The notes under the pieces: model-generated
Told to the model about the DNA's origin: nothing
The model's database searches: none
The model's input: the letters and a program-made list of their open reading frames with translations, nothing else
Shown here: positions 35,716-54,188 of the stretch, in pieces
Numbering within the stretch: the first letter of the stretch is position 1
Layout of the letters: the number at the start of each line of letters is the position of its first letter
Origin: Gammaproteobacteria bacterium
GTDB taxonomy: Bacteria; Pseudomonadota; Gammaproteobacteria; GCA-001735895
Direction: 5' to 3'
Length of the DNA: 64,000 nucleotides
Assembly: GCA_024225395.1 (NCBI GenBank)
Contig: JAAEMR010000174.1
Location: 6,057 to 70,056 of the forward strand
Program-made: the position numbers and the translations under genes

Positions 35716-37344
35716 ATGTCTGAGGAGGCAATTATGAGTGAACAAGGTTCTGAGTATAGAGTAGGACAGGATAATATTCGTTTTATGGGGCTGGATATAC
35801 ATAACCCCGTTTTTCTATTTTCCACCATTGTTATTTTTGTTTTTTTGATCGGCTCAGTGATAGCCGGGGAAGCTGCTGGTGCTTTTTTTGGTGATCTTAG
35901 AAAATCAATAACATCGACCTTTGACTGGTTCTTTTTAATCGCCGGTAATATTTTTGTGCTGTTTTGCCTGTTCCTGATTGTCAGCCCTTTAGGTAAAATT
36001 AAACTTGGGGGAAAGGAAGCTTCACCGGATTACAGTACGCTTTCCTGGTTTGCTATGTTATTTGCTGCCGGTATGGGCATAGGCTTGATGTTCTGGAGTG
36101 TGGCTGAACCAGTTGTTTATGCCTCTGGCGTGTGGGGATATGCACCTCTTGGTGTCAGTGAAAGCAAGGAAATGGCTTTTGCAGTGACCATCTTTCACTG
36201 GGGGCTTCACCCCTGGGCAATATATGCAGTTGTTGGCCTGGCATTAGCATTCTTCACTTACAATCGAGGATTACCACTTACCATTCGCTCCGCCTTTTAT
36301 CCTATTTTTGGGGATGCTGTGTGGGGCTGGGTAGGCCATATCATCGATACTTTAGCCGTTTTTGCGACCATTTTTGGTCTTGCAACTTCATTAGGACTAG
36401 GTGCACAACAGGCCAACGCCGGTTTAAACTACCTGTTTGGAATGGAGATAGGGTCAACGGTTCAAACTATATTGATTTCTGTTATCACACTAATCGCACT
36501 GGTTTCGGTGGTAGCAGGTCTTGATAAGGGAGTTAAACGCCTGAGTGAATTTAATATTGTTCTGGCATTTTTACTCATGGCAGCAGTTATTGTGCTGGGT
36601 CCCACGATGGAAATAGTGGCCGGATTCTTTGCAAATACCGGCTCGTATTTAAGTAATATCATTCCGTTAAGTAACTGGATTGGCCGTGAAGACTCCAGTT
36701 TTCTGCATGACTGGACAACATTTTACTGGGCCTGGTGGATTGCATGGTCTCCATTCGTTGGTATGTTTATTGCCCGCGTTTCAAAAGGTCGTTCTGTAAG
36801 AGAGTTTGTTACCTGCGTTCTACTGGTTCCAACCGTTGTATCTATTTTGTGGATGTCTGCATTTGGTGGTTCCGCAATTGATCAGGTCATCAACCAGGCT
36901 GGCAGTCTGGAGAATGCCATTGTCAGTGTTGCCGCTCCAACAGCTGAGAATCCATCAGCGACTACGAACGTTTTCAATAGCCAACTTGCAGAACAGGTTA
37001 ACAATGCCTATGCACAGGCAATGTTTACCATGTTTGATGGCGGTTTTCCCTTTGCTGGATTGCTTTCTTTTATCGGTATCGTCCTGGTCATCACATTTTT
37101 TGTAACTTCTTCAGATTCAGGATCGCTGGTTATTGATACGATAACGGCAGGCGGAAAAATAGATGCTCCAGTGGCGCAACGAGTACTCTGGTGTTTACTG
37201 GAAGGCTCAATAGCCATTGTGTTGTTATGGACCGGTGGCTTATCAGCTTTACAGGCCGCATCCGTTGCAACAGGTTTACCTTTTGCGCTCATTTTATTAT
37301 TTATGTGTATCGCTCTGTATAAAGGTTTGAGCAAAGAAACATAG
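35716..37344 (+). CDS. BCCT-family transporter (betaine/carnitine/choline)
   Basis: BCCT signature …WFAMLFAAGMGIGLMFWSVAEPV… with 12 TM helices. Confidence 0.85.
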   Translation: MSEEAIMSEQGSEYRVGQDNIRFMGLDIHNPVFLFSTIVIFVFLIGSVIAGEAAGAFFGDLRKSITSTFDWFFLIAGNIFVLFCLFLIVSPLGKIKLGGKEASPDYSTLSWFAMLFAAGMGIGLMFWSVAEPVVYASGVWGYAPLGVSESKEMAFAVTIFHWGLHPWAIYAVVGLALAFFTYNRGLPLTIRSAFYPIFGDAVWGWVGHIIDTLAVFATIFGLATSLGLGAQQANAGLNYLFGMEIGSTVQTILISVITLIALVSVVAGLDKGVKRLSEFNIVLAFLLMAAVIVLGPTMEIVAGFFANTGSYLSNIIPLSNWIGREDSSFLHDWTTFYWAWWIAWSPFVGMFIARVSKGRSVREFVTCVLLVPTVVSILWMSAFGGSAIDQVINQAGSLENAIVSVAAPTAENPSATTNVFNSQLAEQVNNAYAQAMFTMFDGGFPFAGLLSFIGIVLVITFFVTSSDSGSLVIDTITAGGKIDAPVAQRVLWCLLEGSIAIVLLWTGGLSALQAASVATGLPFALILLFMCIALYKGLSKET

Positions 37345-37469
37345 CAATCATGTTAAAATGGATACTGATCACAACAATAGTGAGCAGTATCCGTTTTTCA
37401 ATTTCACCAACATTGATGACTAATATTTTCTAAAATATCACCGTCTAAAACATTTAAAAGGTAAGTCAA

Positions 37470-39098
37470 TTGCAACGAGATAGCATGGAATTTGATGTAG
37501 TAATTGTCGGAGCCGGTCCCTCAGGGCTCAGCGCTGCAATTCGTCTTGCTCAATTATCTTTACAGGAAGACAGCTCTATCTCCATCTGTATTGTTGAAAA
37601 AGGATCCGAAGTCGGTGCTCACATTTTATCAGGAGCAATACTGGAACCCAGAAGTCTGGATGAATTAATACCTGACTGGAAACAGTTAAACACTCCCATC
37701 CATACCGCTGTTAGTTCAGATAATTTTCAATTTCTTACTAAAAAACACGCTTTCACTCTGCCAACACCTCCTTCTATGCATAATGAGGGTAACTATATAA
37801 TCAGCCTTGGAAATTTTTGCCGCTGGCTGGCAGAACAGGCGGAGCAACTGGGTATTGAAATTTTCCCGGGTTTTTCCGCCAGTGAATTATTGTTTGATGA
37901 AAGTGGCGCGATACGCGGTATAGCAACAGGAGATATGGGTATTGCTAAAGATGGACAAAAAACAGACAGCTTTCAACCTGGAGTTGAACTCATTGCCCGT
38001 CAAACTCTTTTTGCTGAAGGTTGTAGAGGTTCTCTAAGTAAACAACTCATGAGCCATTACCAACTGCGCAAGGATGTAGAGTCGCAAACTTATGCTATAG
38101 GGCTGAAGGAGTTATGGGAAATTCCCGCTGAAATGCACCATGCAGGATCAACCTGTCATACCATAGGCTGGCCACTGGATAATAATACCTATGGTGGTTC
38201 ATTTATTTACCACCTGGAAAATAATCAAATTGCTATAGGGTTTGTTATCGGTCTTGATTACCAGAACCCCTTTCTTGATCCTTTTGAAGAATTTCAGCAG
38301 TTTAAAAATCACCCTTCTGTCCGCCCCTTGCTTGAAAAAGGAAAACGTATTAGCTATGGGGCCAGAGCACTTTCAGAGGGAGGTTACCAATCCATTCCTA
38401 AATTGACTTTTCCCGGAGGTTGCCTTATTGGTGATAGCGCTGGATTTCTTAATGTTGCTAAAATCAAAGGAACTCATACCGCGATGAAAAGTGGCATGCT
38501 TGCGGCAGAAGCGGTGTATAAAATACTACAGCAGGATCAACAAAATGAAGCTGTAGAGTACACTGATAAGTTACGTCAAAGCTGGTTATGGGATGAACTC
38601 AAGCAAGTCAGAAATATTCGCCCCGGTTTTCAACAAGGGCTATGGCGAGGACTTTTTAATGCAGCAGTAGAAACTTACATAACCCGGGGCAAGGGCAGTA
38701 AAACGCTGAAACACCATGAAGATCATAACCAGCTTCACAAGTCAGTTGAACACACTAAAATAAACTATCCTAAACCTGATGGTATCGTTAGTTTTGACCG
38801 TTTATCCTCGGTTTATCTATCAGCCACCAACCACGAAGAAAATCAGCCCGCACACCTAAAATTAAAAGACGACTCAATACCAGTTACTGTTAATTTGACT
38901 GATTATGATGCCCCGGAACAGCGTTATTGTCCGGCTGGAGTGTATGAAATAATCAGTGATGCATCGGGATTAGATCAACTTCAGATAAATGCGCAAAACT
39001 GCCTTCATTGTAAAACCTGTGATATCAAGGATCCCACTCAAAATATCAACTGGGTTCCCCCTGAAGGTGGTGGTGGCCCGAACTACCCAAATATGTAG
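37470..39098 (+). CDS. Electron-transfer flavoprotein:ubiquinone oxidoreductase (ETF-QO)
   Basis: FAD motif …FDVVIVGAGPSGLSAA…. C-terminal 4Fe-4S …CLHCKTCDIKDPTQNINWVPPEGGGGPNY… typical of ETF-QO. Confidence 0.8.
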   Translation: MQRDSMEFDVVIVGAGPSGLSAAIRLAQLSLQEDSSISICIVEKGSEVGAHILSGAILEPRSLDELIPDWKQLNTPIHTAVSSDNFQFLTKKHAFTLPTPPSMHNEGNYIISLGNFCRWLAEQAEQLGIEIFPGFSASELLFDESGAIRGIATGDMGIAKDGQKTDSFQPGVELIARQTLFAEGCRGSLSKQLMSHYQLRKDVESQTYAIGLKELWEIPAEMHHAGSTCHTIGWPLDNNTYGGSFIYHLENNQIAIGFVIGLDYQNPFLDPFEEFQQFKNHPSVRPLLEKGKRISYGARALSEGGYQSIPKLTFPGGCLIGDSAGFLNVAKIKGTHTAMKSGMLAAEAVYKILQQDQQNEAVEYTDKLRQSWLWDELKQVRNIRPGFQQGLWRGLFNAAVETYITRGKGSKTLKHHEDHNQLHKSVEHTKINYPKPDGIVSFDRLSSVYLSATNHEENQPAHLKLKDDSIPVTVNLTDYDAPEQRYCPAGVYEIISDASGLDQLQINAQNCLHCKTCDIKDPTQNINWVPPEGGGGPNYPNM

Positions 39099-39120
39099 TC
39101 ATTTAAAATATGTTATGGTT

Positions 39121-41136
39121 TTACACTTTACTACATCGACGACGTTTACGCCGATTGGCACTTTCATCCCTTGTTTTTACCTGTACCTCAGGAAAAGAAA
39201 CCAGTTTGGATAGCTCAGTATACTTTTCCGTTTTATGCGGAATGGCCATAGCTTCAATAAAATAATCCTGAAATTTTTCTTCTATTGCCGTTTCTATTTT
39301 TTCCACTGCCGGCAAAATTTCACTGATTTCCAGACGTGAAGGAAAATTAAGCAGCGCAATTCGAGCCCCTGTTCCTGCTGCATTGCCTACTGATCCAACT
39401 TTATCCAGATTACAGTCAGGGATTAAGCCCAATATCATGGCATATTTGACATCAATATGACTTCCAAATGCTCCAGCTAATCCTATCCGGTCAACTTTTT
39501 GAATACCCAGATGATTCATCAATAACCGAATACCTGCATGTAAAGCAGCTTTCGCCAACTGAATTGCACGCACATCGTTCTGGGTAATCACAATGGATTT
39601 ATCGGCTGAATACAACAGGTAACACCAGGTCCTACCTTGTTTAAATATTCGATGACTATTATTACCCTCAACAGGAGCAATCACTCCATGCTGATTAATT
39701 ATGCCCGCTAGATACATCTCAGCAACAACTTCAATAATTCCCGAGCCACATATTCCACTGATATTTACTCTGGCACTTTTATCAATAAAGGTATCCTCAT
39801 CTGACCAGACATCACAGCCAATTACACGAAACCGGGGCTCTAATGTCTCCTTATCGATACGAACACGTTCTATGGCTCCCGCTGCTGCCCGTTGTCCTGA
39901 GCTAATTTGTGCCCCTTCAAATGCTGGACCTGTAGGGCTTGAAGCAGCGAGAAGACGATGTTGATTACCGAGCACTATTTCGGCATTTGTGCCTACATCA
40001 ACCAGCAACATATTTTCTTCGGCCAGGTCAGGTCGTTCAGATAAGATGACACCCGCTGTATCAGCACCTATGTGTCCTGCAATACAGGGCAGTACACATA
40101 TTCGGGTTTCACTATACAGATGAATATCTATTTCCCGTGCAGGAATTATAACCATTTGATCAGTTACCAGTGTGAAAGGTGCACTACCCAGTGGTGTAGG
40201 ATCTAACCCCAATAAAATATGATGCATAATCGGGTTGGCGACGATCGTTATATCAAGTATCTCACTCTCTGCAATACCGGCTGATTTTGCTGCACGTTTT
40301 GCCAGCTGGTTAATCGCTTCCCGTACAACCCTGCTTAACTCAGCTTCACTGCCTTCATTCATCATGATGTAAGAGACACGACTCATCAGGTCTTCACCAA
40401 AACGAATCTGCGGATTCATCATATCAGCGGTAGCTACTATTTCACCCGTATCGAGGTTGCATAATTGAGCAGCGATGGTTGTTGAACCCAGGTCTATAGC
40501 CAATCCGTAAACGACCTTTTTCTCTCCGGGCCAGAGTGCAATAATATGCTGATATTGATACACCGCTACCGTAACAACCCGGTTAGATTTTTCTAATATT
40601 TTTTGTAACAGTCTTAATTGAGATAACTCGCAATCAAGAACAGGCAAATCAAATTTTGTTTTTAACTCATGCTGAAGACGTCGTTTATCTGATAGAGGAG
40701 ATTGCATATCCGGCTCTGGCAGTCTCACTGTATATAACCTTAGAGCTGGCTGAACCTGAATATCGTAGGCGGTGACTTCTTTGGCTATATGCTGTTTATG
40801 CTGTTGACTTCTTTCTGGTACATCAATAACCAGGTCACCCAGAATACGTGCATTACAGGCCAGGCGTTTACCCTGTTCGAGCCAGTTTTTGTGTAAGTGA
40901 TGATGTTCGGTTTCAGTTAGTTCAGACAGATGGTTGGAAGCAGAGACAATACCATGTTTTGAAAAATCACCCAGTTGAGGCAATACCTGGCAACGTCGAC
41001 ACTTACCCTGCCCTCCACAAACCGACTCCAGATCAACAGCAAGGCGTTGAGCAGCCTGAAGAACTGTCGTTCCTACAGTTACCTGCCCGCGTATTCCAGA
41101 TGGCATAAACAGTACTGTGGCATCTTTTTTATTCAA
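39121..41136 (-). CDS. RACo-like reductive activator of corrinoid proteins (N-terminal 2Fe-2S ferredoxin plus ASKHA-fold ATPase; COG3894/RamA-like)
   Basis: N-terminus …CGGQGKCRRCQV… plant-type ferredoxin. Long ASKHA domain with …DLGSTTIAAQL… and …DVGTNAEIVLG… ATP-binding motifs. Confidence 0.7.
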   Translation of the reverse strand: MNKKDATVLFMPSGIRGQVTVGTTVLQAAQRLAVDLESVCGGQGKCRRCQVLPQLGDFSKHGIVSASNHLSELTETEHHHLHKNWLEQGKRLACNARILGDLVIDVPERSQQHKQHIAKEVTAYDIQVQPALRLYTVRLPEPDMQSPLSDKRRLQHELKTKFDLPVLDCELSQLRLLQKILEKSNRVVTVAVYQYQHIIALWPGEKKVVYGLAIDLGSTTIAAQLCNLDTGEIVATADMMNPQIRFGEDLMSRVSYIMMNEGSEAELSRVVREAINQLAKRAAKSAGIAESEILDITIVANPIMHHILLGLDPTPLGSAPFTLVTDQMVIIPAREIDIHLYSETRICVLPCIAGHIGADTAGVILSERPDLAEENMLLVDVGTNAEIVLGNQHRLLAASSPTGPAFEGAQISSGQRAAAGAIERVRIDKETLEPRFRVIGCDVWSDEDTFIDKSARVNISGICGSGIIEVVAEMYLAGIINQHGVIAPVEGNNSHRIFKQGRTWCYLLYSADKSIVITQNDVRAIQLAKAALHAGIRLLMNHLGIQKVDRIGLAGAFGSHIDVKYAMILGLIPDCNLDKVGSVGNAAGTGARIALLNFPSRLEISEILPAVEKIETAIEEKFQDYFIEAMAIPHKTEKYTELSKLVSFPEVQVKTRDESANRRKRRRCSKV

Positions 41137-41324
41137 TTGTCATAAACCTTGAAAAGCAATTAACCGCAGAGAACGCCGGGGTACGCAAGAAGAAAAATTA
41201 TTGTTTGTACTAATCGTATAAAGAAAGCTTAAATCAACCTGTACTTTTGACAACAAAGAACAAATTTAACCAAATCACTCCTCTGCGTACCCCGGCGTCC
41301 TCTGCATTCAAAAATGTTTATCTA

Positions 41325-42230
41325 TCAGCCAGGCGACCTTCTTCGACTGCGCCGCCCTGTACCTCTAACTCTGGCACCTTCAGCAGCAGGCTCTCTAAAT
41401 CGTTTTATCCAGCGCGCACAATCAGGATCTTTACCTAACATAACATCAGCTCCCATGCTGGCACTAACCACTTCAGAATGCAGCGGGTTGGTAATGGCCG
41501 AAGTCATACCAGCCTGAATCGCCATGCTGATAAAAGCCCCATTAAAACCATGGCGGTTGGGTAAACCAAAACTGATATTAGATGCACCACAGGTTGTATT
41601 TACTTTAAGTTCAGAACGTAAACGATGAATTAATTTTAGTACCTGTTGACCGGCTTTATTGATTGCTCCAATGGGCATCACCAGGGGATCAACTACTACA
41701 TCACAGGCTGGAATTCCATAATCTGAAGCACGCTCAACTATTTTTTTGGCTACATCAAATCTGACATCGATATCTTCCGAAATACCACTTTCATCATTTG
41801 AAATTGCAACAACTGCGGCACCATACTTTTTAATCAGGGGTAATACTCGCTCCAGATTCTCTTCCTCTCCAGTCACCGAGTTCACCAGTGCTTTTCCCTG
41901 ATAAACAGCCAGACCTGCTTCAAGTGCTTCGATAATGGAGGAATCAATACTCAGCGGTACGTCCGTCAGGCTTTGAACCAGCTGTAATACTTCTGCTAAT
42001 ATTTTGGGTTCATCTGCCAGTGGTATGCCTGCGTTTACATCGAGCATATGAGCACCTGCTTTTACCTGGGCAATAGCATCACTCTCAACACGAGAGTAGT
42101 CACCATTTTTCATTTCTTCGGCCATAATCTTTCGGCCGGTAGGGTTGATGCGTTCGCCGATAATTACAAATGGACGATCAAAGCCTATCACTAACTCTTT
42201 GCTCGCTGAACTAATAACCGTTTCAGTCAT
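41325..42230 (-). CDS. Pterin-binding methyltransferase (methyl-corrinoid:tetrahydrofolate methyltransferase, MtgA/MtrH/AcsE-like)
   Basis: …IIGERINPTG…HMLDVNAGIP…ALVNSV… DHPS-like TIM barrel of methyl-THF:corrinoid methyltransferases. Confidence 0.7.
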   Translation of the reverse strand: MTETVISSASKELVIGFDRPFVIIGERINPTGRKIMAEEMKNGDYSRVESDAIAQVKAGAHMLDVNAGIPLADEPKILAEVLQLVQSLTDVPLSIDSSIIEALEAGLAVYQGKALVNSVTGEEENLERVLPLIKKYGAAVVAISNDESGISEDIDVRFDVAKKIVERASDYGIPACDVVVDPLVMPIGAINKAGQQVLKLIHRLRSELKVNTTCGASNISFGLPNRHGFNGAFISMAIQAGMTSAITNPLHSEVVSASMGADVMLGKDPDCARWIKRFREPAAEGARVRGTGRRSRRRSPG

Positions 42231-42279
42231 TTTTACTTCCTCAAAGTTTTGCTACTTGTTTAAACAAAGTTGCTTAATT

Positions 42280-43287
42280 TTAATAATCGATGCCATCATG
42301 ATCACAACCCGGATACCAGGGAACACGACCCTCTAAAACACCAGACTGCTGAATAATATCCTTGACCGCTTCTTCCTGACGATATGCCATTACATGAACA
42401 CCACTGACCCCCGAAATTTCACGTATTTGCTGGATCAGTTCGATGCAAATTTTTTGCCCTTCATTTTTTTGATTTTGCGCACTTTCCAGACGTTTAATAA
42501 TGGCATCGGGAATATGAATTCCAGGTACATTTTTTCGAATCCAGCTAGCAGTTCTGGCTGAAGCAAGTGGCCCAACACCGGGTAAAATAAAACATTTTTC
42601 AAGTAAGCCAAGATCACCTGCTTTGGTCATAAAGTCTTTTAACTTCGGAACATCAAAAATATACTGAGTCTGAATAAAATCAGCACCCGCTGCTATTTTT
42701 TTGGCCAGTCGATAGGGACGAAAATCTATCGGAGGTGCATAAGGGTTTTCAGCCGCACCGAGAAACATTTTAGGAGGGGAAGTTATCGAACGGCCACTCA
42801 GGTAACGTGATTCATCACGCATGATACGAATAGTCTCCAGCAGTGAAATACTATCCAGATCAAAAACGGGTTTAGCCTCAGGATGATCGCCCACCTGAAC
42901 CCCATCACCGCTCAGGCACAAAACATTACCAACGCCCATTGCTGCAGCACCCAGTACATCACCCTGAATCGCAATTCGATTTTTATCACGACAGGAAATC
43001 TGCATCACAGGAGCATATCCGACATTGGTTAACAGTGCGCACATGCCAATGCTCGACATGTGACAGTTAGCACCCGAGCCATCGGTGGCATTCATACCAT
43101 CAACATAACCATCAAAAACCTGTGCACGAGCATAAACATCATCGGCCAGAGCAGAGTCTGGTGGAGCCAGTTCAGCAGTGACAGCAAAGTGTCCCGATTT
43201 CAGTAAGCGTTCGAGCCGACCACGAGAGACATGCCCTTCTTTTTCGGGAAGCGGTTGAGCCGCAGGATTATCGTTTAATCCTAACAT
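42280..43287 (-). CDS. metF: Methylenetetrahydrofolate reductase (MetF family)
   Basis: …ISCRDKNRIAIQGDVLGAAAMGVGNVLCLSGDG… and …FIQTQYIFDV… MetF hallmarks. Confidence 0.7.
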   Translation of the reverse strand: MLGLNDNPAAQPLPEKEGHVSRGRLERLLKSGHFAVTAELAPPDSALADDVYARAQVFDGYVDGMNATDGSGANCHMSSIGMCALLTNVGYAPVMQISCRDKNRIAIQGDVLGAAAMGVGNVLCLSGDGVQVGDHPEAKPVFDLDSISLLETIRIMRDESRYLSGRSITSPPKMFLGAAENPYAPPIDFRPYRLAKKIAAGADFIQTQYIFDVPKLKDFMTKAGDLGLLEKCFILPGVGPLASARTASWIRKNVPGIHIPDAIIKRLESAQNQKNEGQKICIELIQQIREISGVSGVHVMAYRQEEAVKDIIQQSGVLEGRVPWYPGCDHDGIDY

Positions 43288-43753
43288 CGTCAGGCATTTC
43301 CTGTTTGTTTTTTACATCGTCCTGTACAACTCTCAGCCAGGATGAACTGCCCTTAAAACTGTAATTCACAGGTTGTTGAATTTCTTTCATTTTTTCACAT
43401 TGTGACATTTGCTGTGCACCTTTCCAGGCTTCTACCCAGACACATCGCATTTCTGGTTTAACTTCACAGGTCCCATCCATCCGAACACCACCGCAGGGAC
43501 CATTTCGTAACGATTTTGGACAATTCATGGAACACGACATCCCGCTTGAGCTGAGTGCACACTGGCCACACATCTGGCAGTCAAACATTAAACCTTTTAT
43601 CGATTTTTCAATGACTCGAACGGGTTTTTCCAAACGTTCATATCCAATGACATTCCATACCTTATGTAGTCTGATGAGAACGGGTTCAAACAGTAAGTAT
43701 ATATATTCAAGACCTCTGGAATGCTTTACCGACCAGTTGCGAATAAGTTGCAC
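43268..43753 (-). CDS. MetV-like protein (methylene-THF reductase C-terminal Zn-ribbon domain, PF12225-type)
   Basis: …CQMCGQCALSS…MNCPKSLRNGPCGGV… signature. Overlaps the metF start. Confidence 0.55.
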   Translation of the reverse strand: MQLIRNWSVKHSRGLEYIYLLFEPVLIRLHKVWNVIGYERLEKPVRVIEKSIKGLMFDCQMCGQCALSSSGMSCSMNCPKSLRNGPCGGVRMDGTCEVKPEMRCVWVEAWKGAQQMSQCEKMKEIQQPVNYSFKGSSSWLRVVQDDVKNKQEMPDDVRIKR

Positions 43754-43765
43754 TTCAGTCTCCGG

Positions 43766-44149
43766 TTAAGCGGTTTTTAAACGCATTTCATCAACTCCGC
43801 TGGCCCGGATCAACCTGTCCAGAACTTCATCGTTGTAGTTTTCTTCTAATTGTTTAACCAGTAGTTGCGCCTGTTCCTGAATATTTCCCTGAAAAGCCTG
43901 CTCAACAGTTTGCCAGGGATCAAATAGAGCATCTTCTCCTCGTTTTTTTAAACGGTTAGATGCACGGTCAATTGCATCAGCAAACTTGTATGAAAGTCTA
44001 AATCGTTCATTTCGGCGACCTATACGCATAACAACCTGTGCGGGAATATCATGCCAGTACACTATTTTTAACTTTGCCATAGTAATTCTCTGTTTTAAAA
44101 CCCGGCTAAGAGCAGCTTCAAAAATTAATTCACACTTCCGGGGTTCCAC
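43766..44149 (-). CDS. Hypothetical protein (about 105-127 aa) in the methyltransferase operon
   Basis: ORF only. Possible internal start at MAKLKIVYWHDIP. Confidence 0.35.
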   Translation of the reverse strand: MEPRKCELIFEAALSRVLKQRITMAKLKIVYWHDIPAQVVMRIGRRNERFRLSYKFADAIDRASNRLKKRGEDALFDPWQTVEQAFQGNIQEQAQLLVKQLEENYNDEVLDRLIRASGVDEMRLKTA

Positions 44150-44745
44150 TCACTCATTTTTGCGTCGAGTACCGGCAGCATGACTCCACTACCGGTAAAT
44201 ATTTTTTTAAACTGAAGATTCAACCGGGTTGCTGCTTTTTTTGCCAGTTCAGTCAATTCAGTTGAATCTGTTTGTGCCAGGTAAACCAGACGTTTGTAAT
44301 GACCAAAATACAGGGGTAATAGTTCAGGAAACCGATCAAGTCCCAGTGTACCGATCACTAAACGTTCAAAATGTATAGTCAGAAAATCTGTAAGGTAAAA
44401 AGTACCGGGTTCTTCATGCTGTAAACTGGCGTATGTTTTTTCACCGGCAAGAAAGTCATAACAATGAGCACCCGGTAAACGAGATACACCACGATCCGCA
44501 AGCAATCGATCAAGCTCCCCGCTTGTACCACAGTCACCGTAGGCCACAAAAATAGAGTCGTAAGTACCTGCTGCCAGATCAATTAAGTTAGCGACTGCCT
44601 GTGGAATTTTTTGTGGTGTGGTATGCAGGTCAGCACTGATAGCCTGTAGCTCCATATGTGACCAGTGATTCATTTTTTTTATTTCATTGACTTCTCTGGC
44701 TATGGCAGCACAGGTTATTACCAGAATTCGGGGCGGATTATTCAT
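44125..44745 (-). CDS. DUF1638-like protein, a family recurrently associated with corrinoid methyltransferase gene clusters
   Basis: …ILVITCAAIAREV…VAYGDCGTSGELD…. Family assignment from memory and moderately uncertain. Confidence 0.45.
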   Translation of the reverse strand: MNNPPRILVITCAAIAREVNEIKKMNHWSHMELQAISADLHTTPQKIPQAVANLIDLAAGTYDSIFVAYGDCGTSGELDRLLADRGVSRLPGAHCYDFLAGEKTYASLQHEEPGTFYLTDFLTIHFERLVIGTLGLDRFPELLPLYFGHYKRLVYLAQTDSTELTELAKKAATRLNLQFKKIFTGSGVMLPVLDAKMSEWNPGSVN

Positions 44746-44758
44746 CTCATGATTTAAA

Positions 44759-45517
44759 TTAAGCGGCTCGTCGCTGTGCGATCAACTGCTTGGCAATATC
44801 TGTCGTTACAGCCGCATCACGACAATAGGCATCAGCTCCAACAGCATCGCCAAATTCCTGATTCAATGGAGCACCACCAACCAGTACGATGTAGTTATCT
44901 CGAATTCCCTGCTCTTTCATCGTATCTATAACCACTTTCATGTACGGCATGGTGGTGGTTAATAATGCAGACATTCCAAGAATATCCGGTTTATGTTCTT
45001 CCAGTGCGGCCAGGTATGTTTCTACTGGAATATTAATGCCCAGATCGATCACCTCGAAGCCTGCACCTTCCATCATCATGCATACCAGGTTTTTACCGAT
45101 ATCATGAATATCCCCTTTAACAGTACCTATCACCATTTTTCCTGCCACCGGTTCATCCGACTCTGCCAGCAATGGTTTTAGAATAGCCATGCCTGCTTTC
45201 ATCGAATTTGCCGACATCAGGACTTCGGGTACGAACAGAATGCCATCTCGAAAATCAATCCCGACTATGGTCATGCCTGCGACAAGAGCTTCATTTAAAA
45301 CCTTATTCGCATCCCAGCCTCGTTCCAGCAATATTTCAGTACCTTCGGCAACTTCTTCTTTTAATCCGTTGTAAAGGTCATCATGCATTTGTTCAACAAG
45401 TTCATCATCAGGTAAAGTCGAAAGGTCCAGATCCTCTTCATCATCATACTCATCGTCTAAATCAGTCATTTTTTCACCATCTATCAGGGTGTTATAAATT
45501 AGCCGTATCCGAGTCAA
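44759..45517 (-). CDS. Corrinoid (cobalamin-binding) protein, MtgC/MttC-like (B12-binding_2 cap plus B12-binding Rossmann domain)
   Basis: DxHxxG motif GDIHDIGKNLV. …GMSALLTTT… (SxL). …VLVGGAP… (GG). Confidence 0.8.
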   Translation of the reverse strand: MTRIRLIYNTLIDGEKMTDLDDEYDDEEDLDLSTLPDDELVEQMHDDLYNGLKEEVAEGTEILLERGWDANKVLNEALVAGMTIVGIDFRDGILFVPEVLMSANSMKAGMAILKPLLAESDEPVAGKMVIGTVKGDIHDIGKNLVCMMMEGAGFEVIDLGINIPVETYLAALEEHKPDILGMSALLTTTMPYMKVVIDTMKEQGIRDNYIVLVGGAPLNQEFGDAVGADAYCRDAAVTTDIAKQLIAQRRAA

Positions 45518-45775
45518 GAATAATTACAGCTCGCTTTATAATCTGACATAACAGCGACAAAACATGACTGAAACGCGACACAATTAAGGGTATCTCTATT
45601 AATCAGATTTGTTTCTTGGGGGCAAGTAAGCAGCACACGCAGAGCCTCAATTTATAAGGAATACATGAGGATTGAAGCATGGAGCTGATGCTGAAATTGA
45701 GTAAAATATGTAGATAAGCTTTAGCGAATATTAGTATTATTGACCTCGATTAGAAGTGCTGTGCTTATTCCACCT

Positions 45776-46168
45776 TCAATATTGTGGTGCATTACCTGCT
45801 ATCTCATGAAAGTCACTCTTATCAGTGACAAATATCTGGGTTGTTACCCTGTGCCCAGTTTTAGCCTCCAGGCATCCAGTCATGACAATCACTTTTCCAG
45901 TTTCAGGTTGTTGCCTGCAGAATAAATTAGAACCACATAACTGACAAAAACCTCTAATTGACAGGTTAGTTTCAAACCAGGCAAGACCGCTTTGTTCAAT
46001 AAAATGTATCTGACTCTCTTCTACCGAAGTTGCTGACACAAAGTTACCGCTGGTTTTGCGACATTCTGAGCAATAGCAACTCACAATATCCCGAAAAGGG
46101 GCTGACAGTTCAAAACTGACACTACCGCAAAGGCATTCGCCGAGTAATTTTTGATTGTTTTTGGTCAT
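45776..46168 (-). CDS. GFA (glutathione-dependent formaldehyde-activating, CENP-V-like) family protein
   Basis: Cys pattern CLCGSV…CYCSECRK…CQLCGSNLF typical of GFA zinc sites. Confidence 0.7.
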   Translation of the reverse strand: MTKNNQKLLGECLCGSVSFELSAPFRDIVSCYCSECRKTSGNFVSATSVEESQIHFIEQSGLAWFETNLSIRGFCQLCGSNLFCRQQPETGKVIVMTGCLEAKTGHRVTTQIFVTDKSDFHEIAGNAPQY

Positions 46169-46190
46169 TTTAAGACCTCGATAGAGTCGA

Positions 46191-47915
46191 TTAAAATAAA
46201 CCTTCTATTTGACCTTGCGTATTCACATGAATTTTTTCAGCCGCAGGTACACGTGGCAAACCTGGCATAGTCATGACATCACCACAGATAACAACCAGAA
46301 AACCAGCTCCATTGGACAGGCGAATTTCACGGATTGGGACAACATGATTACTGGGGGCACCTTTCAAAGCCGGATCAGTTGAAAATGATAAAGGGGTCTT
46401 AGCAATACACACGGGGAAATCACCATATCCATCCTCCTGAAGCGCTTTAAATTGATCTCGAACTTTCTGATCAGCGATCACTCCCTGAGCACCATATAAT
46501 TCCTGGGCAACTGTACGAACCTTGTCCAGTAATGGCATTTTTTCATCATATAGAAAATGGAAATTAGCAGGTTCATTATCAATCATTTCTACAACACTTT
46601 GAGCCAGGTCGACAGTCCCTTTACCACCCAGGGCCCAATGATCACACATCACTGCATTGACTTCTATTTCTGCACACAGCTGGCGTAACAAATTAATTTC
46701 TGATTTTGTATCTGCGCTAAACCTGTTAATAGCAACAATGACAGGAATGCCAAATTTACGTGTATTTTCTACATGTCGTGCAAGGTTATCAAAACCTTTT
46801 ACCATGGCGCCAATATTCTCTTTTTTCATTTGCTGCTCATCACAGCCACCATGCATTTTGAGTGCCCTTATTGTTCCTACTATGACAGCAGCATCGGGTT
46901 TTAATCCCGACTTTCTCATCTTGATATTAAAAAACTTCTCAGCACCAAGATCAGCACCAAATCCTGCTTCGGTAACGACATAATCCGCCAGTTTTAATGC
47001 CGTAGAGGTTGCCAGGACAGAGTTACAGCCATGTGCAATATTGGCAAAAGGGCCTCCATGTATAAAGGCTGGAGTTCCTTCCATTGTCTGTACAAGATTG
47101 GGTTGTAATGCATCTTTCAACAAAGCTGTCATCGCTCCCTGCGCATTAATATCACGAGCATAAACCGGTGATTTGTCGCGACGGTGCCCCACAATAATAT
47201 TTGCCAGTCTCTCCTGTAAATCATCAATATCTGTGGCCAGACAAAAAATAGCCATCACCTCGGAAGCTACGGTAATATCATAACCATCTGTTCGCGGAAA
47301 CCCATTGGTAACGGCTCCCAGTCCATTGGTGATTTCTCGTAAAGCACGGTCATTCATATCCACCACTCTACGCCATGATACTCGACGAAAATCTAACTTC
47401 TGTTCATTGCCCCAGTAAATATGATTATCTATCATCGCTGCCAGTAAATTGTTAGCCGCGCCTATTGCATGAAAGTCACCGGTAAAATGCAGGTTTATAT
47501 CTTCCATAGGCACAACCTGGGCAAAACCACCTCCGGCTGCGCCCCCTTTCATTCCAAAACAGGGGCCCAGAGAAGGTTCACGCAAGCAGACTGCCGTCTT
47601 CTTTCCTATTCTGCTCAGCGCATCACTTAATCCAACTGAAGTTGTCGTTTTTCCTTCACCGGCTTTAGTAGGCGTCATGCCAACCACTAAAATTAACTTA
47701 CCATCAGGGTTGTCATTAATCGAACGAATGAAAGGCAGACTAACTTTTGCTTTATCCGGTCCATAAAGTTGAAGGTTTTCATCGTTAATTCCAAGTTTTG
47801 CAGCAATCTTGCGTATGGGTTTTACTTTTGCCATACGGGCAATTTCAATATCTTCTTTCGGGTTCGTATGTTGAGTGACAGACATTTCCAGATAATCCTC
47901 AATTGGTTTCAACAA
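46191..47915 (-). CDS. fhs: Formate--tetrahydrofolate ligase
   Basis: …[18 protein letters not shown]… P-loop and full-length FTHFS collinearity (…[10 protein letters not shown]…). Confidence 0.9.
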
Positions 47916-48174
47916 TTCAGTCAGATTGAATCTTGAATCAATCTATATAAATAGACCAACAGGCGAGCGACTCTTGACTGTCTATTAACGACATGACCTA
48001 CCCTGTAACTTTAACCGAAAAGCTTTTTAGTTCTTTTTGCCTTTATTTAACCTGCCACAGTTTATTCAGTTGCCCTTATTTCCCTTAGTAACATGATCAG
48101 AAAAAATTCATAAACGACATCAATTAGTCACAAAGCGCCCCCTGTCTACCGCCTTAAAGAAGTTTAATTTATAT

Positions 48175-48444
48175 TTGCAAAATCTGATAAAGAGACATCC
48201 CATGCCGACTATACACTCTAATAGACGTAGGCGTAGAAATACTGCTGAAACGAGCCAACCTCGCGGTTTCCAGCCGCCACGACAACAACTGGTTGCCCCC
48301 TATCCTCCCATGGAGTTATTGTCAGCCGGTCAAATAGAATTTATTCACCAGGCCTCCTTAACAATTTTGAGTGAAATTGGTATTGATTTCCTGTTGTCCG
48401 AAGCGCGCGATATGCTGAAAAAAGCAGGCACTATATATGTCTAG
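48175..48444 (+). pseudogene. N-terminal about 80-aa fragment of an MttB-superfamily (trimethylamine / glycine betaine:corrinoid) methyltransferase; remainder of the gene absent
   Basis: …RRRRRNTAETSQPRGFQPP…LSAGQIEFIHQASLTILSEIGIDFL…AGTIYV* matches the conserved N-terminus of non-Pyl MttB/MtgB proteins (about 480-520 aa). The ORF stops after 89 codons and an unrelated MFS gene begins inside the stop (ATGTCTAG). Confidence 0.6.
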
Positions 48445-49702
48445 TAATCTCCGAAATACCACAACACTTTTCATTGGTGTTGGTTTGTTATTTCTTAGCT
48501 CAGGAATGCTTTTTACCCTGGTTGTTGTGCGGGCTAAAGATGCAGGATTTTCCACCCAGGCCATTGCAGTTTTACAATCAAGTTACCAGTTTGGCTGGTT
48601 ACTTGCCGCAATATTTATATCCAGCTTAATACATAAAGTCGGACACATTCGTGTTTTTGCTGCCCTAACCGCATTAGCTTCGTCAGTTATATTAATTCAA
48701 ATATTATATATCCAGCAATATGCATGGATTTTAGACCGGATTGTAATGGGTATTTGTATAGCCGGATTGATGGTTGTAGCAGAAAGCTGGTTGAATGAAA
48801 TGTCAATAAACTCCGATCGCGGTAGAAATTTAGCTATTTATACTATCGTAAGTTGGGGCGCGCCTATTATAGGAGTCTGGTTATTACGCTTTGGAGAAAC
48901 ATCAGGTAATACACTTTTTTTACTGGCTTCTGTGCTTATTTCATTGGCAGCAATACCACTCTTACTTTCAGTTAGCAAAACACCCCAGTTAATAGAAGTT
49001 GAGTTTTTCGGGCTTAGGAAATTATATAACATTACGCCACTTGGATTCATCGGTACGTTAATAGCAGGCATGTGCCATGGTGCTTTTTTCGGTCTTATCC
49101 CGGTTTATGGTGTAGAAATAAACTTACAAATAGATCAACTTTCAAACCTTATCGCTTTGGGACTGTTTTCTGGTGTACTGCTCCAGTGGCCGATAGCGCT
49201 TATTTCAGACAAATTTGACCGCCGTTTTGTACTTATATCAACAGCAAGCTTTGCTGCATTTCCAGCCATATACTTTTCTTTTATTGATAACATCAGCATA
49301 ACTCAGTTGTATATTTCAATATCATTGATGGGTGCATTCACTATTAGCCTTTATAGCCAATGTATCGCCCATGTAAATGACCTTCTCAAACCAGCTCAAA
49401 TAGTTTCTGCAACAGGTTTATTAGTATTGATTTATGGCTTCGGGTTTGCTTTGGCACCATTGATTATCGGACAGTTAATTGCAATATCGGCTCATTTTTT
49501 CTTTATATCGAATGGTTTACTTTCATCTTCTTTAGCGTTGTACACTTTGTATCGCACTATTCGAACCAAACCTGTTGAAGATCAGGGTGAATTGATTAAT
49601 ATACCTGTCGCCTCGCCATATTCAGCTGTTGTAATAGCCGCAGAAGAATGGGCAGAAGACACGGACCTTGAATATATAAAAGAATCAAAAAACCCGGTTT
49701 GA
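48437..49702 (+). CDS. MFS transporter (12-TM)
   Basis: 421 aa with 12 hydrophobic helices. No specific substrate motif recognised. Confidence 0.7.
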   Translation: MSSNLRNTTTLFIGVGLLFLSSGMLFTLVVVRAKDAGFSTQAIAVLQSSYQFGWLLAAIFISSLIHKVGHIRVFAALTALASSVILIQILYIQQYAWILDRIVMGICIAGLMVVAESWLNEMSINSDRGRNLAIYTIVSWGAPIIGVWLLRFGETSGNTLFLLASVLISLAAIPLLLSVSKTPQLIEVEFFGLRKLYNITPLGFIGTLIAGMCHGAFFGLIPVYGVEINLQIDQLSNLIALGLFSGVLLQWPIALISDKFDRRFVLISTASFAAFPAIYFSFIDNISITQLYISISLMGAFTISLYSQCIAHVNDLLKPAQIVSATGLLVLIYGFGFALAPLIIGQLIAISAHFFFISNGLLSSSLALYTLYRTIRTKPVEDQGELINIPVASPYSAVVIAAEEWAEDTDLEYIKESKNPV

Positions 49703-49768
49703 TTTGATTTTAATCAGGAGGCATAGGTCATCATGAGCAATAAACAGTGCGACAACACGGCGCAATGG

Positions 49769-50107
49769 AGTTTTCAGAGCCATCTGTCGATCTCGACAAG
49801 GTACGCCCCGGGATTTCTGAAAACGAGCGGTGGTCCACGCACTACATCAAGTCAATATTAACCCTGTCCTATTCGGTGGTTATGCTTGGAATTTGACTGG
49901 CAGACGCACACCCTGTCATCTAACACCGACAAGGTTATAAAAAATTGGGGTATAATGGGTTTATCGAGCAGGGCATGATCCTGTGTGTTGAATCCTGTAT
50001 AGGCTCTGAAGAAAGTGGTAAAGGTGTCAAGCAGGAACAACAGGTATTGATTACTGAGGATGCCATTCGACGGCTATCAAATTATCCTTTTCAACGGGAC
50101 TGGATTG
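49769..50107 (+). pseudogene. Two out-of-frame remnants of an M24-family (creatinase/Xaa-Pro peptidase-like) gene: about 30 aa from the start of the catalytic domain plus the C-terminal about 80 aa
   Basis: …VDLDKVRPGISENERWSTHYIKSIL (frame 3), then in another frame …LEFDWQTHTL…GMILCVESCIG…GKGVKQEQQVLITEDAIRRLSNYP, which matches the M24 C-terminus (GMVFTIEPGIY…GVRIED.VLVTEDG.E.LT). The middle roughly 150 aa are missing. Confidence 0.45.
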
Positions 50108-50133
50108 ATTAAAAAAAATTTGGAAATTGAAAA

Positions 50134-51222
50134 ATGATCCCAACAACAATGCAAGGTGTTTATCTGTTAGGCCACGGTGGTTTTGAACAATTGCAATTCC
50201 GTCATGATATTCCAGTACCTGTACCTGCAGCAGGTGAAGTGCTGATTCGGGTTGGTGCTGCCGGTGTTAATAATACTGACATCAATACCCGCATTGGCTG
50301 GTACTCAAAGAGCGTTACCGGTGAAACGAATGCAGGAGGTTCAGGTGGTTTTGAGGCTGTAGCTGAAGAGGACGGTAGCTGGACAGGTAATGCCCTGCAA
50401 TTCCCGATAATTCAGGGCGCAGACTGTTGTGGAATCATTGTTGCTGTCGGTGAAGGTGTAGATGATAACCGCCTGGGTGAACGAGTGTTGACCAGGACCA
50501 TGCAGTCTAATGCTTGTGAAGAGTCTCCTTATGACTGTATTACACTGGGATCTGAACGCAATGGTGCATTCTCACAGTACATGACATCGCCATCACACCA
50601 CAGCCTTAAGGTTGACAACAACTGGACGGATATCGAATTGGCTTCAATTCCCTGTGCTTATTCAACAGCAGAAGGCATGTTACAGCGCTCATCGGTCACG
50701 TCTGAAACCGTATTAATTACCGGAGCATCAGGTGGCGTGGGTTCTGCAGCAATTCAATTGGCAAAACGTCGAGGTGCAACAGTGATTGCGGTGTGTAGTG
50801 ACAGCAAAGCCGAAGCCGTGAAAGACCTGGGAGCTGATCAAGTGGTTTCCCGAAACTGCAACCTTGTTACTACTCTGGGTCGTGAAAGCGTTGATGTCAT
50901 TGTCGACCTGGTTGCAGGTCCTTCCTGGCCTTCTTTACTTGAAGTCATAAAACGTGGCGGGCGTTATGTGACTGCAGGTGCTATCGCAGGTCCCATTGTC
51001 GAACTGGATGTACGTACTTTATATCTTAAAGATCTGACACTATTTGGTTGCACCCACCAAAGTAATGAGATTTTTGAAAACCTGATCGGCTATATCGAAA
51101 ATGGAGATATCCGTCCAGTTGTCGCTAAATCCTACCCTCTTGATGAAATAGTGACGGCACAGGAAGATTTTTTATCCAAAAAATACATGGGTAAACTGGT
51201 ACTCGTACCACCACAGGACTAA
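50134..51222 (+). CDS. MDR-superfamily oxidoreductase (quinone-oxidoreductase/zinc-free ADH-like)
   Basis: …GEVLIRVGAAGVNNTDI…, cofactor motif …ITGASGGVGSAAIQLAKRRGATVIAV…. Confidence 0.75.
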   Translation: MIPTTMQGVYLLGHGGFEQLQFRHDIPVPVPAAGEVLIRVGAAGVNNTDINTRIGWYSKSVTGETNAGGSGGFEAVAEEDGSWTGNALQFPIIQGADCCGIIVAVGEGVDDNRLGERVLTRTMQSNACEESPYDCITLGSERNGAFSQYMTSPSHHSLKVDNNWTDIELASIPCAYSTAEGMLQRSSVTSETVLITGASGGVGSAAIQLAKRRGATVIAVCSDSKAEAVKDLGADQVVSRNCNLVTTLGRESVDVIVDLVAGPSWPSLLEVIKRGGRYVTAGAIAGPIVELDVRTLYLKDLTLFGCTHQSNEIFENLIGYIENGDIRPVVAKSYPLDEIVTAQEDFLSKKYMGKLVLVPPQD

Positions 51223-51340: not shown

Positions 51341-52789
51341 TTACGGACTTTGCCCAACATAGCGCCCGCAACCTTCTGGTAATGACATATTGGCATGGGC
51401 TTTGGTATAAAAGCTTAATTTTTCAGTTACAGCTTCAGAAGGCAGGCTGGTACAACGTGTATTCAAGTCCATATGCAACTGTAGAGTTTCGCAGGTAGCA
51501 ACCAGATCACCACTAGAAGCAAATATCCGGTGAAATAATTTCATCTTTTTACCTTCAACGGTCAGGACTTGTGTGGTAATTGAAATGTTCTCGCCTGCTT
51601 TCACTTCAGCAAGATATCGTATATGGGTTTCTGCGGTAAAATAGCTATAACCTGAAGCAATATAGCTGGCATCTGCACCGATTAATTCCATAAAAGCATC
51701 AGTTGCCTGTGAACTGGCTTCCAGATAGTTCGTTTCATTCATATGTCCATTATAATCAGTCCAGCTTTGTGGCACCTGACGAGAAACAGTAATGGGAAGT
51801 TGTTTGTCTTCTACCGGTGTCCGCAGAGTAGACTCATGACTATTAATGAGTCCACCCGCCCCGCTACCGGATTTTTTCAATGCCCGCATCATTCCAACCA
51901 GGTTATCATCACGTAATTGTTCCAGCTCACGAATAGAAAGATGAGCGGATTGTGCATCCGACTGTTCGGCTATTTCATTAATCAATGAGTCGGTTAACTC
52001 GGGCACATCCATCAATTTAGTCCATGGCCATTCAAGGCACGGACCAAACTGACTGATAAAATGTTTCATTCCGGCTTCACCACCGGCGATACGATAGGTT
52101 TCAAATAAACCCATCTGTGCCCAGCGAAGACCAAAACCAAAACGAATCGCATCGTCAATTTCTTCAGTAGTCGCTATCTCATCTTTGATCAACCATAAGC
52201 CTTCCCTCCACACGGCTTCCAGTAAACGGTCTGCAATATGAGCATCAATTTCTTTACGAATATGCAACGGTTTCATACCGATAGAAGTTAATATTTCTTT
52301 AGCACGATCCAAAACGGTTATTGGGGAAACAACCGATGGAACAAGTTCAACTAGAGGTAACAGGTAAACCGGGTTGAACGGGTGAGCTACAATAATTTGG
52401 TGCGGGTTTAGTGCATTTTTCTGTAAATCAGAAGGTTTAAACCCGGAAGTCGATGATCCTAGAACAGAATCTACCTTAGATAATAACTGTATCTCATTGA
52501 TTATACGTTGTTTTAACTCAAGCCTTTCCGGAACACTTTCCTGAATCCATTTCGCATCAATAACAGCATCAGCAAGATTCTCATGAAACAGTAGTTCTCC
52601 TTCGGTAGGCAATGCCTTGTCATAAAGTGAAGGTAGACTACGTCGGGCGTTGTTCAGAACCTGATTGATTTTTCGCTGCGCTTGAGGGTCAGGATCATAA
52701 ACAGAGACATCCCATCCATTGAGTAAAAATCGCGCTACCCATCCTCCTCCAATAACACCTCCACCCACTATGCATGCTTTGTTTTTCAT
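51341..52789 (-). CDS. L-carnitine dehydrogenase (3-hydroxyacyl-CoA dehydrogenase fold) fused to a C-terminal hotdog thioesterase domain (putative betainyl-CoA thioesterase)
   Basis: N-terminus …KACIVGGGVIGGGWVARFLLNGWDVSVYDP… (NAD Rossmann of the HCDH family). C-terminal about 150 aa …YNGHMNETNYLEASSQATDAFMEL…GYSYFTAETHIRYLAEV… 4HBT-like. Confidence 0.7.
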   Translation of the reverse strand: MKNKACIVGGGVIGGGWVARFLLNGWDVSVYDPDPQAQRKINQVLNNARRSLPSLYDKALPTEGELLFHENLADAVIDAKWIQESVPERLELKQRIINEIQLLSKVDSVLGSSTSGFKPSDLQKNALNPHQIIVAHPFNPVYLLPLVELVPSVVSPITVLDRAKEILTSIGMKPLHIRKEIDAHIADRLLEAVWREGLWLIKDEIATTEEIDDAIRFGFGLRWAQMGLFETYRIAGGEAGMKHFISQFGPCLEWPWTKLMDVPELTDSLINEIAEQSDAQSAHLSIRELEQLRDDNLVGMMRALKKSGSGAGGLINSHESTLRTPVEDKQLPITVSRQVPQSWTDYNGHMNETNYLEASSQATDAFMELIGADASYIASGYSYFTAETHIRYLAEVKAGENISITTQVLTVEGKKMKLFHRIFASSGDLVATCETLQLHMDLNTRCTSLPSEAVTEKLSFYTKAHANMSLPEGCGRYVGQSP

Positions 52790-53133
52790 AGTGCCTCCTT
52801 GTAAGAAGTGGGAGCTAAAGTCTCCGTATTGCCATCAACTGATAGTATATGAGCCGGAATTTTAGAGCCAGCATCAGAAGCCAGAAATACTGCCGAGGCA
52901 GCTATATCCTGTGCACTCACCCAGGTTTTCATTGATATCCCTGACACATAACTGGTTACATCTGCAGTCCGGGTAAATGTTCCAGGATGTCGTTGCTTAA
53001 ATTTTGCTACCACTTCAGGGTCTGCATCACAGATTGCTTCAGGAGCATTTTCAGCAAGAAAGGTTCCTGGGCAGGCCAGCCCAATGCCCGCAGCGCCACC
53101 GCTAATAACAACTATTTTTTGTGGATTAATCAT
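52786..53133 (-). pseudogene. Internally deleted short-chain dehydrogenase/reductase gene (115 aa; keeps the N-terminal TGxxxGIG and C-terminal …LASDAGS…VDG… but lacks the catalytic S-YxxxK core)
   Basis: MINPQKIVVISGGAAGIGLA… jumps to …DIAASAVFLASDAGSKIPAHILSVDG…. A full SDR is about 250 aa. Confidence 0.5.
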
Positions 53134-54041: not shown

Positions 54042-54188
54042 AACAGCATCCTGATAATATTGGTGTTAGTTATAGTCACTTTTGGTAATGCCACATTGCA
54101 TGGCAATAATCATTTAAGGAAATATAAAGTAGCATGTTGATAAGCATATCTATTGCCTTTTTGCGCAGCAATTTTTACACTTTGCGCA

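Follow-up and report, generated by a model that had tools for sequence, protein, structure and literature searches.

A stretch of 64,000 nucleotides from the gammaproteobacterial contig JAAEMR010000174.1 (hereafter the window) carries an operon for cobalamin-dependent methyl transfer and, beside it, a fragment of a gene of the MttB family, which supplies the substrate-specific enzymes of such systems. We think it likely that the operon is a known methyl-transfer core that has been retained and still functions with partners encoded elsewhere in the genome, and that the adjacent mttB is a pseudogene produced by a deletion.

The core is a minus-strand operon, with the genes in the order fhs, GFA, corrinoid protein, DUF1638, PF13769, MetV, MetF, pterin-binding methyltransferase and RACo/RamA. 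The identities given here come from Pfam and NCBIfam profile scans of the window's proteins, and the strength of a match is given as an E-value or as a bit score against the cut-off of the model. In the list below THF is tetrahydrofolate and JGI is the Joint Genome Institute.

46191-47915, minus: formate-tetrahydrofolate ligase (fhs); Pfam FTHFS E 2e-265, NCBIfam NF010030 901 bits (cut-off 652)
45776-46168, minus: GFA-family protein; Pfam GFA E 4e-17
44759-45517, minus: cobalamin-binding corrinoid protein, MtgC type of aerobic bacteria; Pfam B12-binding and B12-binding_2
44125-44745, minus: DUF1638 protein, its gene directly downstream of the corrinoid gene; Pfam DUF1638 E 3e-26
43766-44149, minus: small PF13769 ('Virulence_fact') protein; Pfam E 2e-15; the JGI call is 104 aa, 43766-44080
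43268-43753, minus: MetV-like zinc-ribbon partner of MetF (PF12225); Pfam DUF5981 'MTHFR C terminal' E 7e-26
42280-43287, minus: MetF-type methylene-THF reductase (MetF2-like); Pfam MTHFR E 4e-35
41325-42230, minus: pterin-binding methyl-THF:corrinoid methyltransferase, MtgD/MtgA-type; Pfam Pterin_bind E 1.5e-31, NCBIfam NF005719 360 bits (cut-off 259)
39121-41136, minus: RACo/RamA-like ATP-dependent reductive activase of corrinoid proteins; Pfam Fer2 (N-terminal, 2Fe-2S), RACo_linker, Raco_middle and RACo_C_ter

The corrinoid protein is a stand-alone protein with a B12-binding cap and a Rossmann domain, and in its translation the DxHxxG motif reads GDIHDIGKN. It falls below the cut-offs of both NCBIfam equivalog models for the MtgC of anaerobes (220 against 370 bits and 176 against 310 bits), and is 74-78% identical to the corrinoid proteins of Rhodobacteraceae. 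Judged by identity, gene order and model cut-offs, it appears to be orthologous to the split-methionine-synthase subunit of roseobacters, not to the anaerobe MtgC. The pterin-binding methyltransferase is encoded by a separate gene and is 63-92% identical to the copies in related loci. The activase, for which the JGI start gives 661 aa (39121-41106), scores 387 bits with the AcsV-like NCBIfam model, below the cut-off; its gene forms the 3′ end of the operon, a position kept in most related loci. The formate-THF ligase has a probable start at 47885, giving 564 aa.

An earlier note on this DNA, made from the letters, had named a BCCT transporter, ETF-QO (an electron-transfer flavoprotein:ubiquinone oxidoreductase), RACo, a corrinoid protein, a methyltransferase, MetF, MetV, GFA and formate-THF ligase, and the profile scans find every one of them where it had placed them. 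It had also called the cluster complete. This is borne out for the accessory genes, among which DUF1638 and PF13769 had gone unmentioned, but not for the onward oxidation of methyl-THF to formate, as there is no FolD (methylene-THF dehydrogenase/cyclohydrolase) among the window's open reading frames (ORFs) of at least 150 aa. Nor does the window contain a homocysteine S-methyltransferase (PF02574) gene. An Rfam scan of the window gave no riboswitch or other RNA at or above the gathering score of its family, and the promoter and terminator scans gave results not above the shuffled expectation.

Only the beginning of mttB is left. The ORF at 48175-48444 matches positions 2-71 of the 500 in the Pfam MTTB model (E 6.8e-12), where a full-length protein has a TIM-barrel domain of about 470-520 aa. 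The probable start is the ATG at 48202, which gives 80 aa, as JGI calls it, and a matched remnant at 48202-48435. A tblastn search with six full-length MttB proteins found no further MttB similarity in any frame of the window, in agreement with the earlier note's figure of about 80 remaining codons. A homolog search with the 89-aa stub, which is too short a query, returned only the stub itself.

The origin of the stub became clear from a relative. A metagenome scan with the window's MFS protein found the contig Ga0209141_1000138 (L087), whose MFS protein is 92% identical to that of the window in amino acids and whose DNA is 82-88% identical. After a leader shared with the window, L087 has an intact operon of mttB, a FAD amine oxidase-like gene, a DMGDH-like gene, the MFS gene and a DddP-like M24 gene. 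Its MttB has 514 aa and covers Pfam positions 2-500 of 500, and residues 1-78 are 81% identical to the stub. The amine oxidase-like (DAO) protein has 437 aa; the next protein has 850 aa, with DAO, FAO_M and GCV_T domains, and is of the dimethylglycine/sarcosine-dehydrogenase type. Beyond the M24 gene L087 has further genes, followed by carnitine 3-dehydrogenase (CDH), an SDR gene, BKACE and an AraC regulator.

By blastn and alignment the two sequences are collinear on both sides of a single break: window 48174-48435 corresponds to L087 4530-4792, and window 48435-49803 to L087 9999-11369. Relative to L087, 5,206 bp are absent from the window: everything after mttB codon 78, up to a point 2 nt short of the MFS ATG. 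The ends of the junction share about 1 nt of microhomology. The features around the break are as follows.

47967-48201, plus: 5′ leader/promoter region kept from the former mttB operon, which now precedes the stub and the MFS gene; 77% identical to L087 4139-4349, upstream of the intact mttB
48202-48444, plus: mttB pseudogene stub; 78 codons of the MttB N-terminus, followed by 2 codons that arose at the junction and a TAG stop
48435, no strand: deletion junction; the left side ends as L087 4792 (mttB codon 78), the right side begins as L087 9999, 2 nt before the MFS ATG
48437-49702, plus: MFS transporter, intact; Pfam MFS_1 E 9e-27, 92% amino-acid identity to the L087 MFS, ratio of nonsynonymous to synonymous divergence (dN/dS) 0.09

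On this comparison the stub reads as the pseudogene remnant of an ordinary single 5.2-kb deletion. An event mediated by an insertion sequence or a repeat was rejected, as there are no repeats or mobile elements at the junction. A reading of the stub's TAG as a pyrrolysine or other recoded codon was also rejected: what lies downstream is the MFS transporter, and no frame there has MttB similarity. The first bases of the MFS gene lie within the stub ORF (ATGTCTAG), whose translation would stop 5 nt past the MFS start codon. A promoter scan of the leader (47967-48201) gave no significant consensus. As a separate observation, the mttB 5′ leader of L087 contains at 4350-4530 a palindromic insertion of 181 nt that is not in the window; its 78-nt arms are 77% complementary, and it resembles a miniature inverted-repeat transposable element or a repetitive extragenic palindrome (MITE/REP-like).

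The gene that was lost does not look like a methyltransferase of the canonical glycine-betaine type. The L087 MttB is only 38-41% identical to the type of MttB found next to GbdR-like regulators in the closest relatives (L010 and L012), and the two types compare with proteins of known structure as follows.

L087-type MttB: 306 bits against 9yce/2qne (Desulfitobacterium hafniense glycine betaine methyltransferase); 356 bits against 4yyc
L010-type MttB: 447 bits against 9yce/2qne; 756 bits against 4yyc

The lost gene is therefore not evidently a canonical glycine-betaine MtgB of the DSY3156/4yyc group and is better described as an accessory paralog of a distinct subfamily. Going by the gene order of L087, it headed a separate operon with its own demethylase/oxidase genes and transporter. 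The earlier note had taken it for the single component that gives the pathway its specificity, a view that does not fit a paralog from an accessory operon.

The deletion is not confined to one assembly. We found the identical junction in six contigs, independently assembled from six JGI samples. They match the window at 99.6-99.7% identity, with dozens of single-nucleotide polymorphisms (SNPs) both against the window and among themselves. Because the junction is present in all variants sampled, the deletion is common to them and older than their divergence. Near-identical sequence is also found in seven JGI samples and in two NCBI assemblies (GCA_024449705.1 and GCA_024449935.1; L097, L102 and L104), both with contigs numbered into the millions.

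The junction-sharing variants allow selection on the core to be assessed. We compared seven core genes across them, those for RACo, the pterin methyltransferase, MetF, MetV, PF13769, DUF1638 and the corrinoid protein. The total for these genes is 21 synonymous and 5 nonsynonymous SNPs and no indels, where 72% of SNPs would be nonsynonymous under neutrality (binomial p ~3e-8). The core thus appears to be under purifying selection and still in use. The earlier note's expression 'freshly inactivated' can hold only in a relative sense, given a deletion that predates the divergence of the variants and a core that is still constrained. Continued selection implies, we infer, that the core still has partners, either at least one unlinked MttB paralog or a homocysteine-binding subunit for methionine synthesis, or both.

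An unlinked MttB would be nothing unusual. A scan of species-representative genomes with the corrinoid protein gave 80 loci with the core operon, from Gamma-, Alpha- and Betaproteobacteria and Acidimicrobiia, in which the corrinoid protein is 70-95% identical. The usual order, found in most of them, is corrinoid protein, DUF1638, PF13769, (MetV, MetF), pterin methyltransferase and RACo. Among the related loci with full 10-kb flanks on both sides, 27 of 47 (57%) have no MttB within 10 kb. An MttB gene adjoining the core is not the rule, and its absence here, which the earlier note had found remarkable, is shared with these 27. In two Rhodobacteraceae loci, whose corrinoid proteins are 75-78% identical to that of the window, the order is S-methyl_trans (PF02574), an ORF of unknown function, corrinoid protein and DUF1638, and this is the arrangement of the split methionine synthase of Phaeobacter inhibens (PMC5764234).

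Some further observations concern these genes. In L098-L101 a lone canonical-type MttB gene (87% identity to its L010 counterpart) is flanked by two divergently arranged AraC/DJ-1 (GbdR-like) regulators, and no corrinoid genes lie closer than 10 kb. A search with the L010-type MttB gave 7,998 matches at 75-93% identity, which are not separable by sample. One protein, P0127, was considered as the organism's own unlinked MttB and was dropped when it was traced to unrelated samples. The PF13769 ORF is kept across phyla in most of the loci L007-L086, either between DUF1638 and MetV or before the pterin methyltransferase; no role for its product was found in the available parts of the two papers on this system (PMC12478193 and PMC5764234).

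These two papers describe the system to which the core belongs. According to Mausz et al. 2025 (PMC12478193), Ruegeria pomeroyi needs MtgC (corrinoid) and MtgD (pterin) both to make methionine and to demethylate glycine betaine, the latter with the help of MttB-family MtgB proteins. Betaines induce RamA, DUF1638 and a second MetF. The MtgB/MtgC/MtgD(/MtgE) system is known there from Alpha-, Gamma- and Deltaproteobacteria, including marine Gammaproteobacteria, where it often forms operons; up to seven paralogs of pfam06253 occur per genome and may be scattered, as the R. pomeroyi genes are. In the account of Price et al. 2018 (PMC5764234) the corrinoid core subunits double as a split methionine synthase, and DUF1638 is genetically linked to B12 reactivation in it.

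With the R. pomeroyi DSS-3 system the window shares a corrinoid protein, a pterin-binding methyltransferase, a RamA-like activase and DUF1638 as separate proteins, a second MetF for oxidising methyl-THF, THF-linked one-carbon (C1) oxidation, a BCCT transporter, and carnitine-to-betaine genes (CDH and BKACE) nearby. It differs in that its core is a single tight operon to which MetV, PF13769, GFA and fhs are added, and in that it lacks MtgB and MtgE, the sole adjacent MttB paralog being the deletion stub. The likeness to the P. inhibens split methionine synthase lies in the corrinoid protein adjoining DUF1638 and in the RamA-like (ferredoxin plus DUF4445/RACo) activase. Unlike that system the window has no PF02574 gene, and its operon is joined to MetF/MetV and fhs, pointing to oxidation of the methyl group. 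With the MtgB-MtgC-MtgA system of D. hafniense and the MtpB, MtcB and MtyB systems of Eubacterium limosum the window shares a three-component logic (MttB-family enzyme, corrinoid protein and methyl-corrinoid:THF methyltransferase) and RamA-type reactivation. Unlike the systems of these anaerobes, its corrinoid protein falls below the MtgC cut-offs, the L087-type MttB reaches only 306 bits against DSY3156, and the hosts are proteobacteria with ETF-QO. The window cluster is a new instance of a system already described in aerobic marine bacteria. The earlier note had treated a corrinoid system in an aerobic-type proteobacterium as an anomaly, and both papers speak against this.

Taken together, these observations fit the following scheme, whose biochemical steps are from the literature cited above. 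The corrinoid protein, of MtgC type, would take a methyl group from a substrate-specific MttB-family enzyme, and the MtgD-type pterin-binding subunit would hand it to THF, after which MetF/MetV would oxidise the methyl-THF. RamA and DUF1638 would hold the cobalamin in the reduced state. Run backwards with a homocysteine-binding subunit, the same core could make methionine. A divergent mttB probably headed its own accessory operon, with a FAD amine oxidase, a DMGDH-like demethylase, an MFS transporter and a DddP-like M24 gene. One deletion of 5,206 bp would then have taken mttB from codon 79 to its end together with the two oxidase/demethylase genes, so that the stub now abuts the MFS gene with only 2 nt left ahead of its start. 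The core probably still functions through one or more MttB paralogs, a homocysteine methyltransferase subunit, or both, encoded elsewhere in the genome. The persistence of quaternary-amine demethylation depends on such unlinked MttB genes.

The genes that flank the core and the junction place both in a quaternary-amine setting.

35716-37344, plus: BCCT-family betaine/choline/carnitine transporter; Pfam BCCT PF02028 E 4e-177, NCBIfam TIGR00842 460 bits (cut-off 407)
37470-39098, plus: ETF-QO; Pfam Fer4_ETF_QO E 1e-49, ETFQO_UQ-bd E 3e-42
49750-50109, plus: remnants of an M24 (DddP-like) gene, a second deletion-derived pseudogene; by tblastn the 409-aa L087 protein matches only at aa 7-25 and 288-409, with blastn fragments
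50134-51222, plus: Zn-dependent dehydrogenase/quinone-reductase-family protein; Pfam ADH_N and ADH_zinc_N; no L087 match
51341-52789, minus: carnitine 3-dehydrogenase (CDH) fused to a thioesterase domain; NCBIfam NF005716 748 bits (cut-off 592), Pfam 3HCDH_N and 4HBT_2
52813-53133, minus: SDR remnant between CDH and BKACE, a third pseudogene; by tblastn the 257-aa L087 SDR matches at aa 1-60 and 210-256 only, with aa 61-209 deleted
53130-54041, minus: BKACE-family beta-keto acid cleavage enzyme; Pfam BKACE E 2e-95, 93% identical to the L087 homolog
54153-55148, plus: AraC/DJ-1 regulator, GbdR/CdhR type; Pfam DJ-1_PfpI and HTH_18, NCBIfam GbdR 222 bits, below the cut-off of 480

For the BCCT transporter the nearest equivalog is the glycine betaine BCCT model, with 532 bits, below its cut-off of 650. 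The gene context suggests that the BKACE enzyme cleaves dehydrocarnitine. The CDH-thioesterase, BKACE and GbdR/CdhR-type regulator make up the known route from carnitine to glycine betaine, and the region can therefore be called a quaternary-amine catabolic island. Other details are noted in passing. Relative to the window, all six related assemblies have a 6-bp in-frame insertion (GCTGTA) in the Zn-dehydrogenase gene at window 50356. A tungsten/molybdenum-type aldehyde:ferredoxin oxidoreductase (61384-63195, minus) with a ThiS-like small gene (region 61126-61377) adjoins an Opp/Dpp-type ABC transporter, which is odd company for a presumed aerobe, and another truncated M24 fragment lies at the end of the window (63708-63998).

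The stub sits in a small patch of gene decay. The M24 fragments lie in what looks like an intergenic gap of 430 bp downstream of the MFS gene; with the model for DddP, the intact L087 protein reaches 430 bits, DddP being a dimethylsulfoniopropionate (DMSP) lyase and the cut-off of its model 600. The GFA gene is intact in the window, but one variant (L001) has a 1-bp homopolymer insertion at 46001, and two others from two different samples (L003 and L004) share a 1-bp homopolymer deletion at 46145 and a SNP at 46148. Both indels shift the reading frame, and in this population the gene appears to be in decay. The near-identical copies, together with the clustered pseudogenes, hint at a host-associated or otherwise bottlenecked population.

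Several points weigh against a core that still works with unlinked partners. Neither an MttB-family gene nor a homocysteine-binding subunit is found in the window or in the flanks of about 9 kb on its right and about 4 kb on its left. The test of selection uses 26 SNPs from closely related strains, and purifying selection on the core would equally follow from a role that is independent of MttB. CDH (6 synonymous and 6 nonsynonymous SNPs) and BKACE (4 and 5) look less constrained, which leaves open that quaternary-amine catabolism as a whole may be in loss. Finally, we take the L087 arrangement as ancestral by parsimony, and upstream of the mttB leader L087 has a DAO gene where the window has fhs.

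The most serious alternative is that the whole corrinoid-dependent quaternary-amine pathway is dead or dying, the deleted mttB having been its only substrate methyltransferase and the other genes being intact for lack of time. Inactivation and a paralog encoded in trans were the two possibilities raised by the earlier note, and they are the right ones to weigh. Three deletion-derived pseudogenes and the GFA frameshift alleles within about 7 kb are what a dying pathway might leave, and so are the similar numbers of synonymous and nonsynonymous SNPs in CDH and BKACE. The deletion also took the DMGDH-like and FAD amine-oxidase genes, possibly the next steps of demethylation, and no other MttB lies in the window or the 4-9 kb beyond. 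However, the polymorphism of the seven core genes is unlike neutral decay, and the lost paralog lies outside the canonical glycine-betaine subfamily. Most of the fully flanked related loci (57%) do without a linked MttB as well, and the described family (PMC12478193) needs the core for methionine synthesis too and typically has multiple, unlinked MttB paralogs. We consider this alternative unlikely. The methionine-synthase role, which follows from the use of the core subunits as a split methionine synthase (PMC5764234), is a reason for retention that the earlier note had not weighed.

A slightly slimmer chance attaches to the loss of every MttB-family gene while the MtgC/MtgD/RamA/DUF1638 core, with MetF/MetV and fhs, stays under selection, or to a methyl donor from outside the MttB family. 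Loss of every MttB with the core kept would mean that the two roles of the system have come apart naturally, the core serving only as a split methionine synthase or C1 shuttle.

As a lesser variant, and a rather improbable one, the stub may persist as a short upstream ORF that, when translated, ties expression of the MFS gene through the overlap at ATGTCTAG to the former promoter of mttB. The MFS gene has lost its own upstream region to within 2 nt of the ATG, yet it is intact (dN/dS 0.09, with 1 synonymous and 0 nonsynonymous SNPs among the variants), and the stub's reading frame is open in all strains. Against this, the amino-acid sequence of the stub is drifting. Its polymorphism consists of 0 synonymous and 2 nonsynonymous SNPs, its dN to L087 exceeds that of the intact genes nearby two- to threefold, and it carries substitutions at positions invariant among its five closest full-length homologs. 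The nearest full-length proteins among those searched are L087/P0185 (81%) and P0186-P0188 (68-77%), and none of them is an intact allele from the same species closer than L087. The stub shows signs of relaxed constraint, so any coupling role would be independent of its sequence.

The possibility that an error of assembly or sequencing, such as a chimeric join or a collapsed region, hides an intact mttB at the locus, which the earlier note had allowed for, has only the abruptness of the junction in its favour and can be set aside almost entirely, as the same junction recurs in the six independent, SNP-differing assemblies and the breakpoint falls exactly between two segments collinear with L087.

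If the core is indeed retained with partners elsewhere, as we favour, the locus is a clean natural case of modular loss, in which an accessory substrate operon (MttB and two FAD demethylase/oxidase genes) has been deleted and the core is still constrained. The intact operon of L087, with its MttB, N-methyl-amine oxidase-like, DMGDH-like, MFS and DddP-like M24 genes, points to an uncharacterised MttB subfamily. The substrate of this subfamily could merit determination, and is the one lead of some value. The wider implication is a corrective one. A corrinoid operon without an adjacent MttB in a respiratory proteobacterium should not be read as broken or exotic: the core is a shared module, used also for methionine synthesis, and is served by unlinked, interchangeable substrate subunits.

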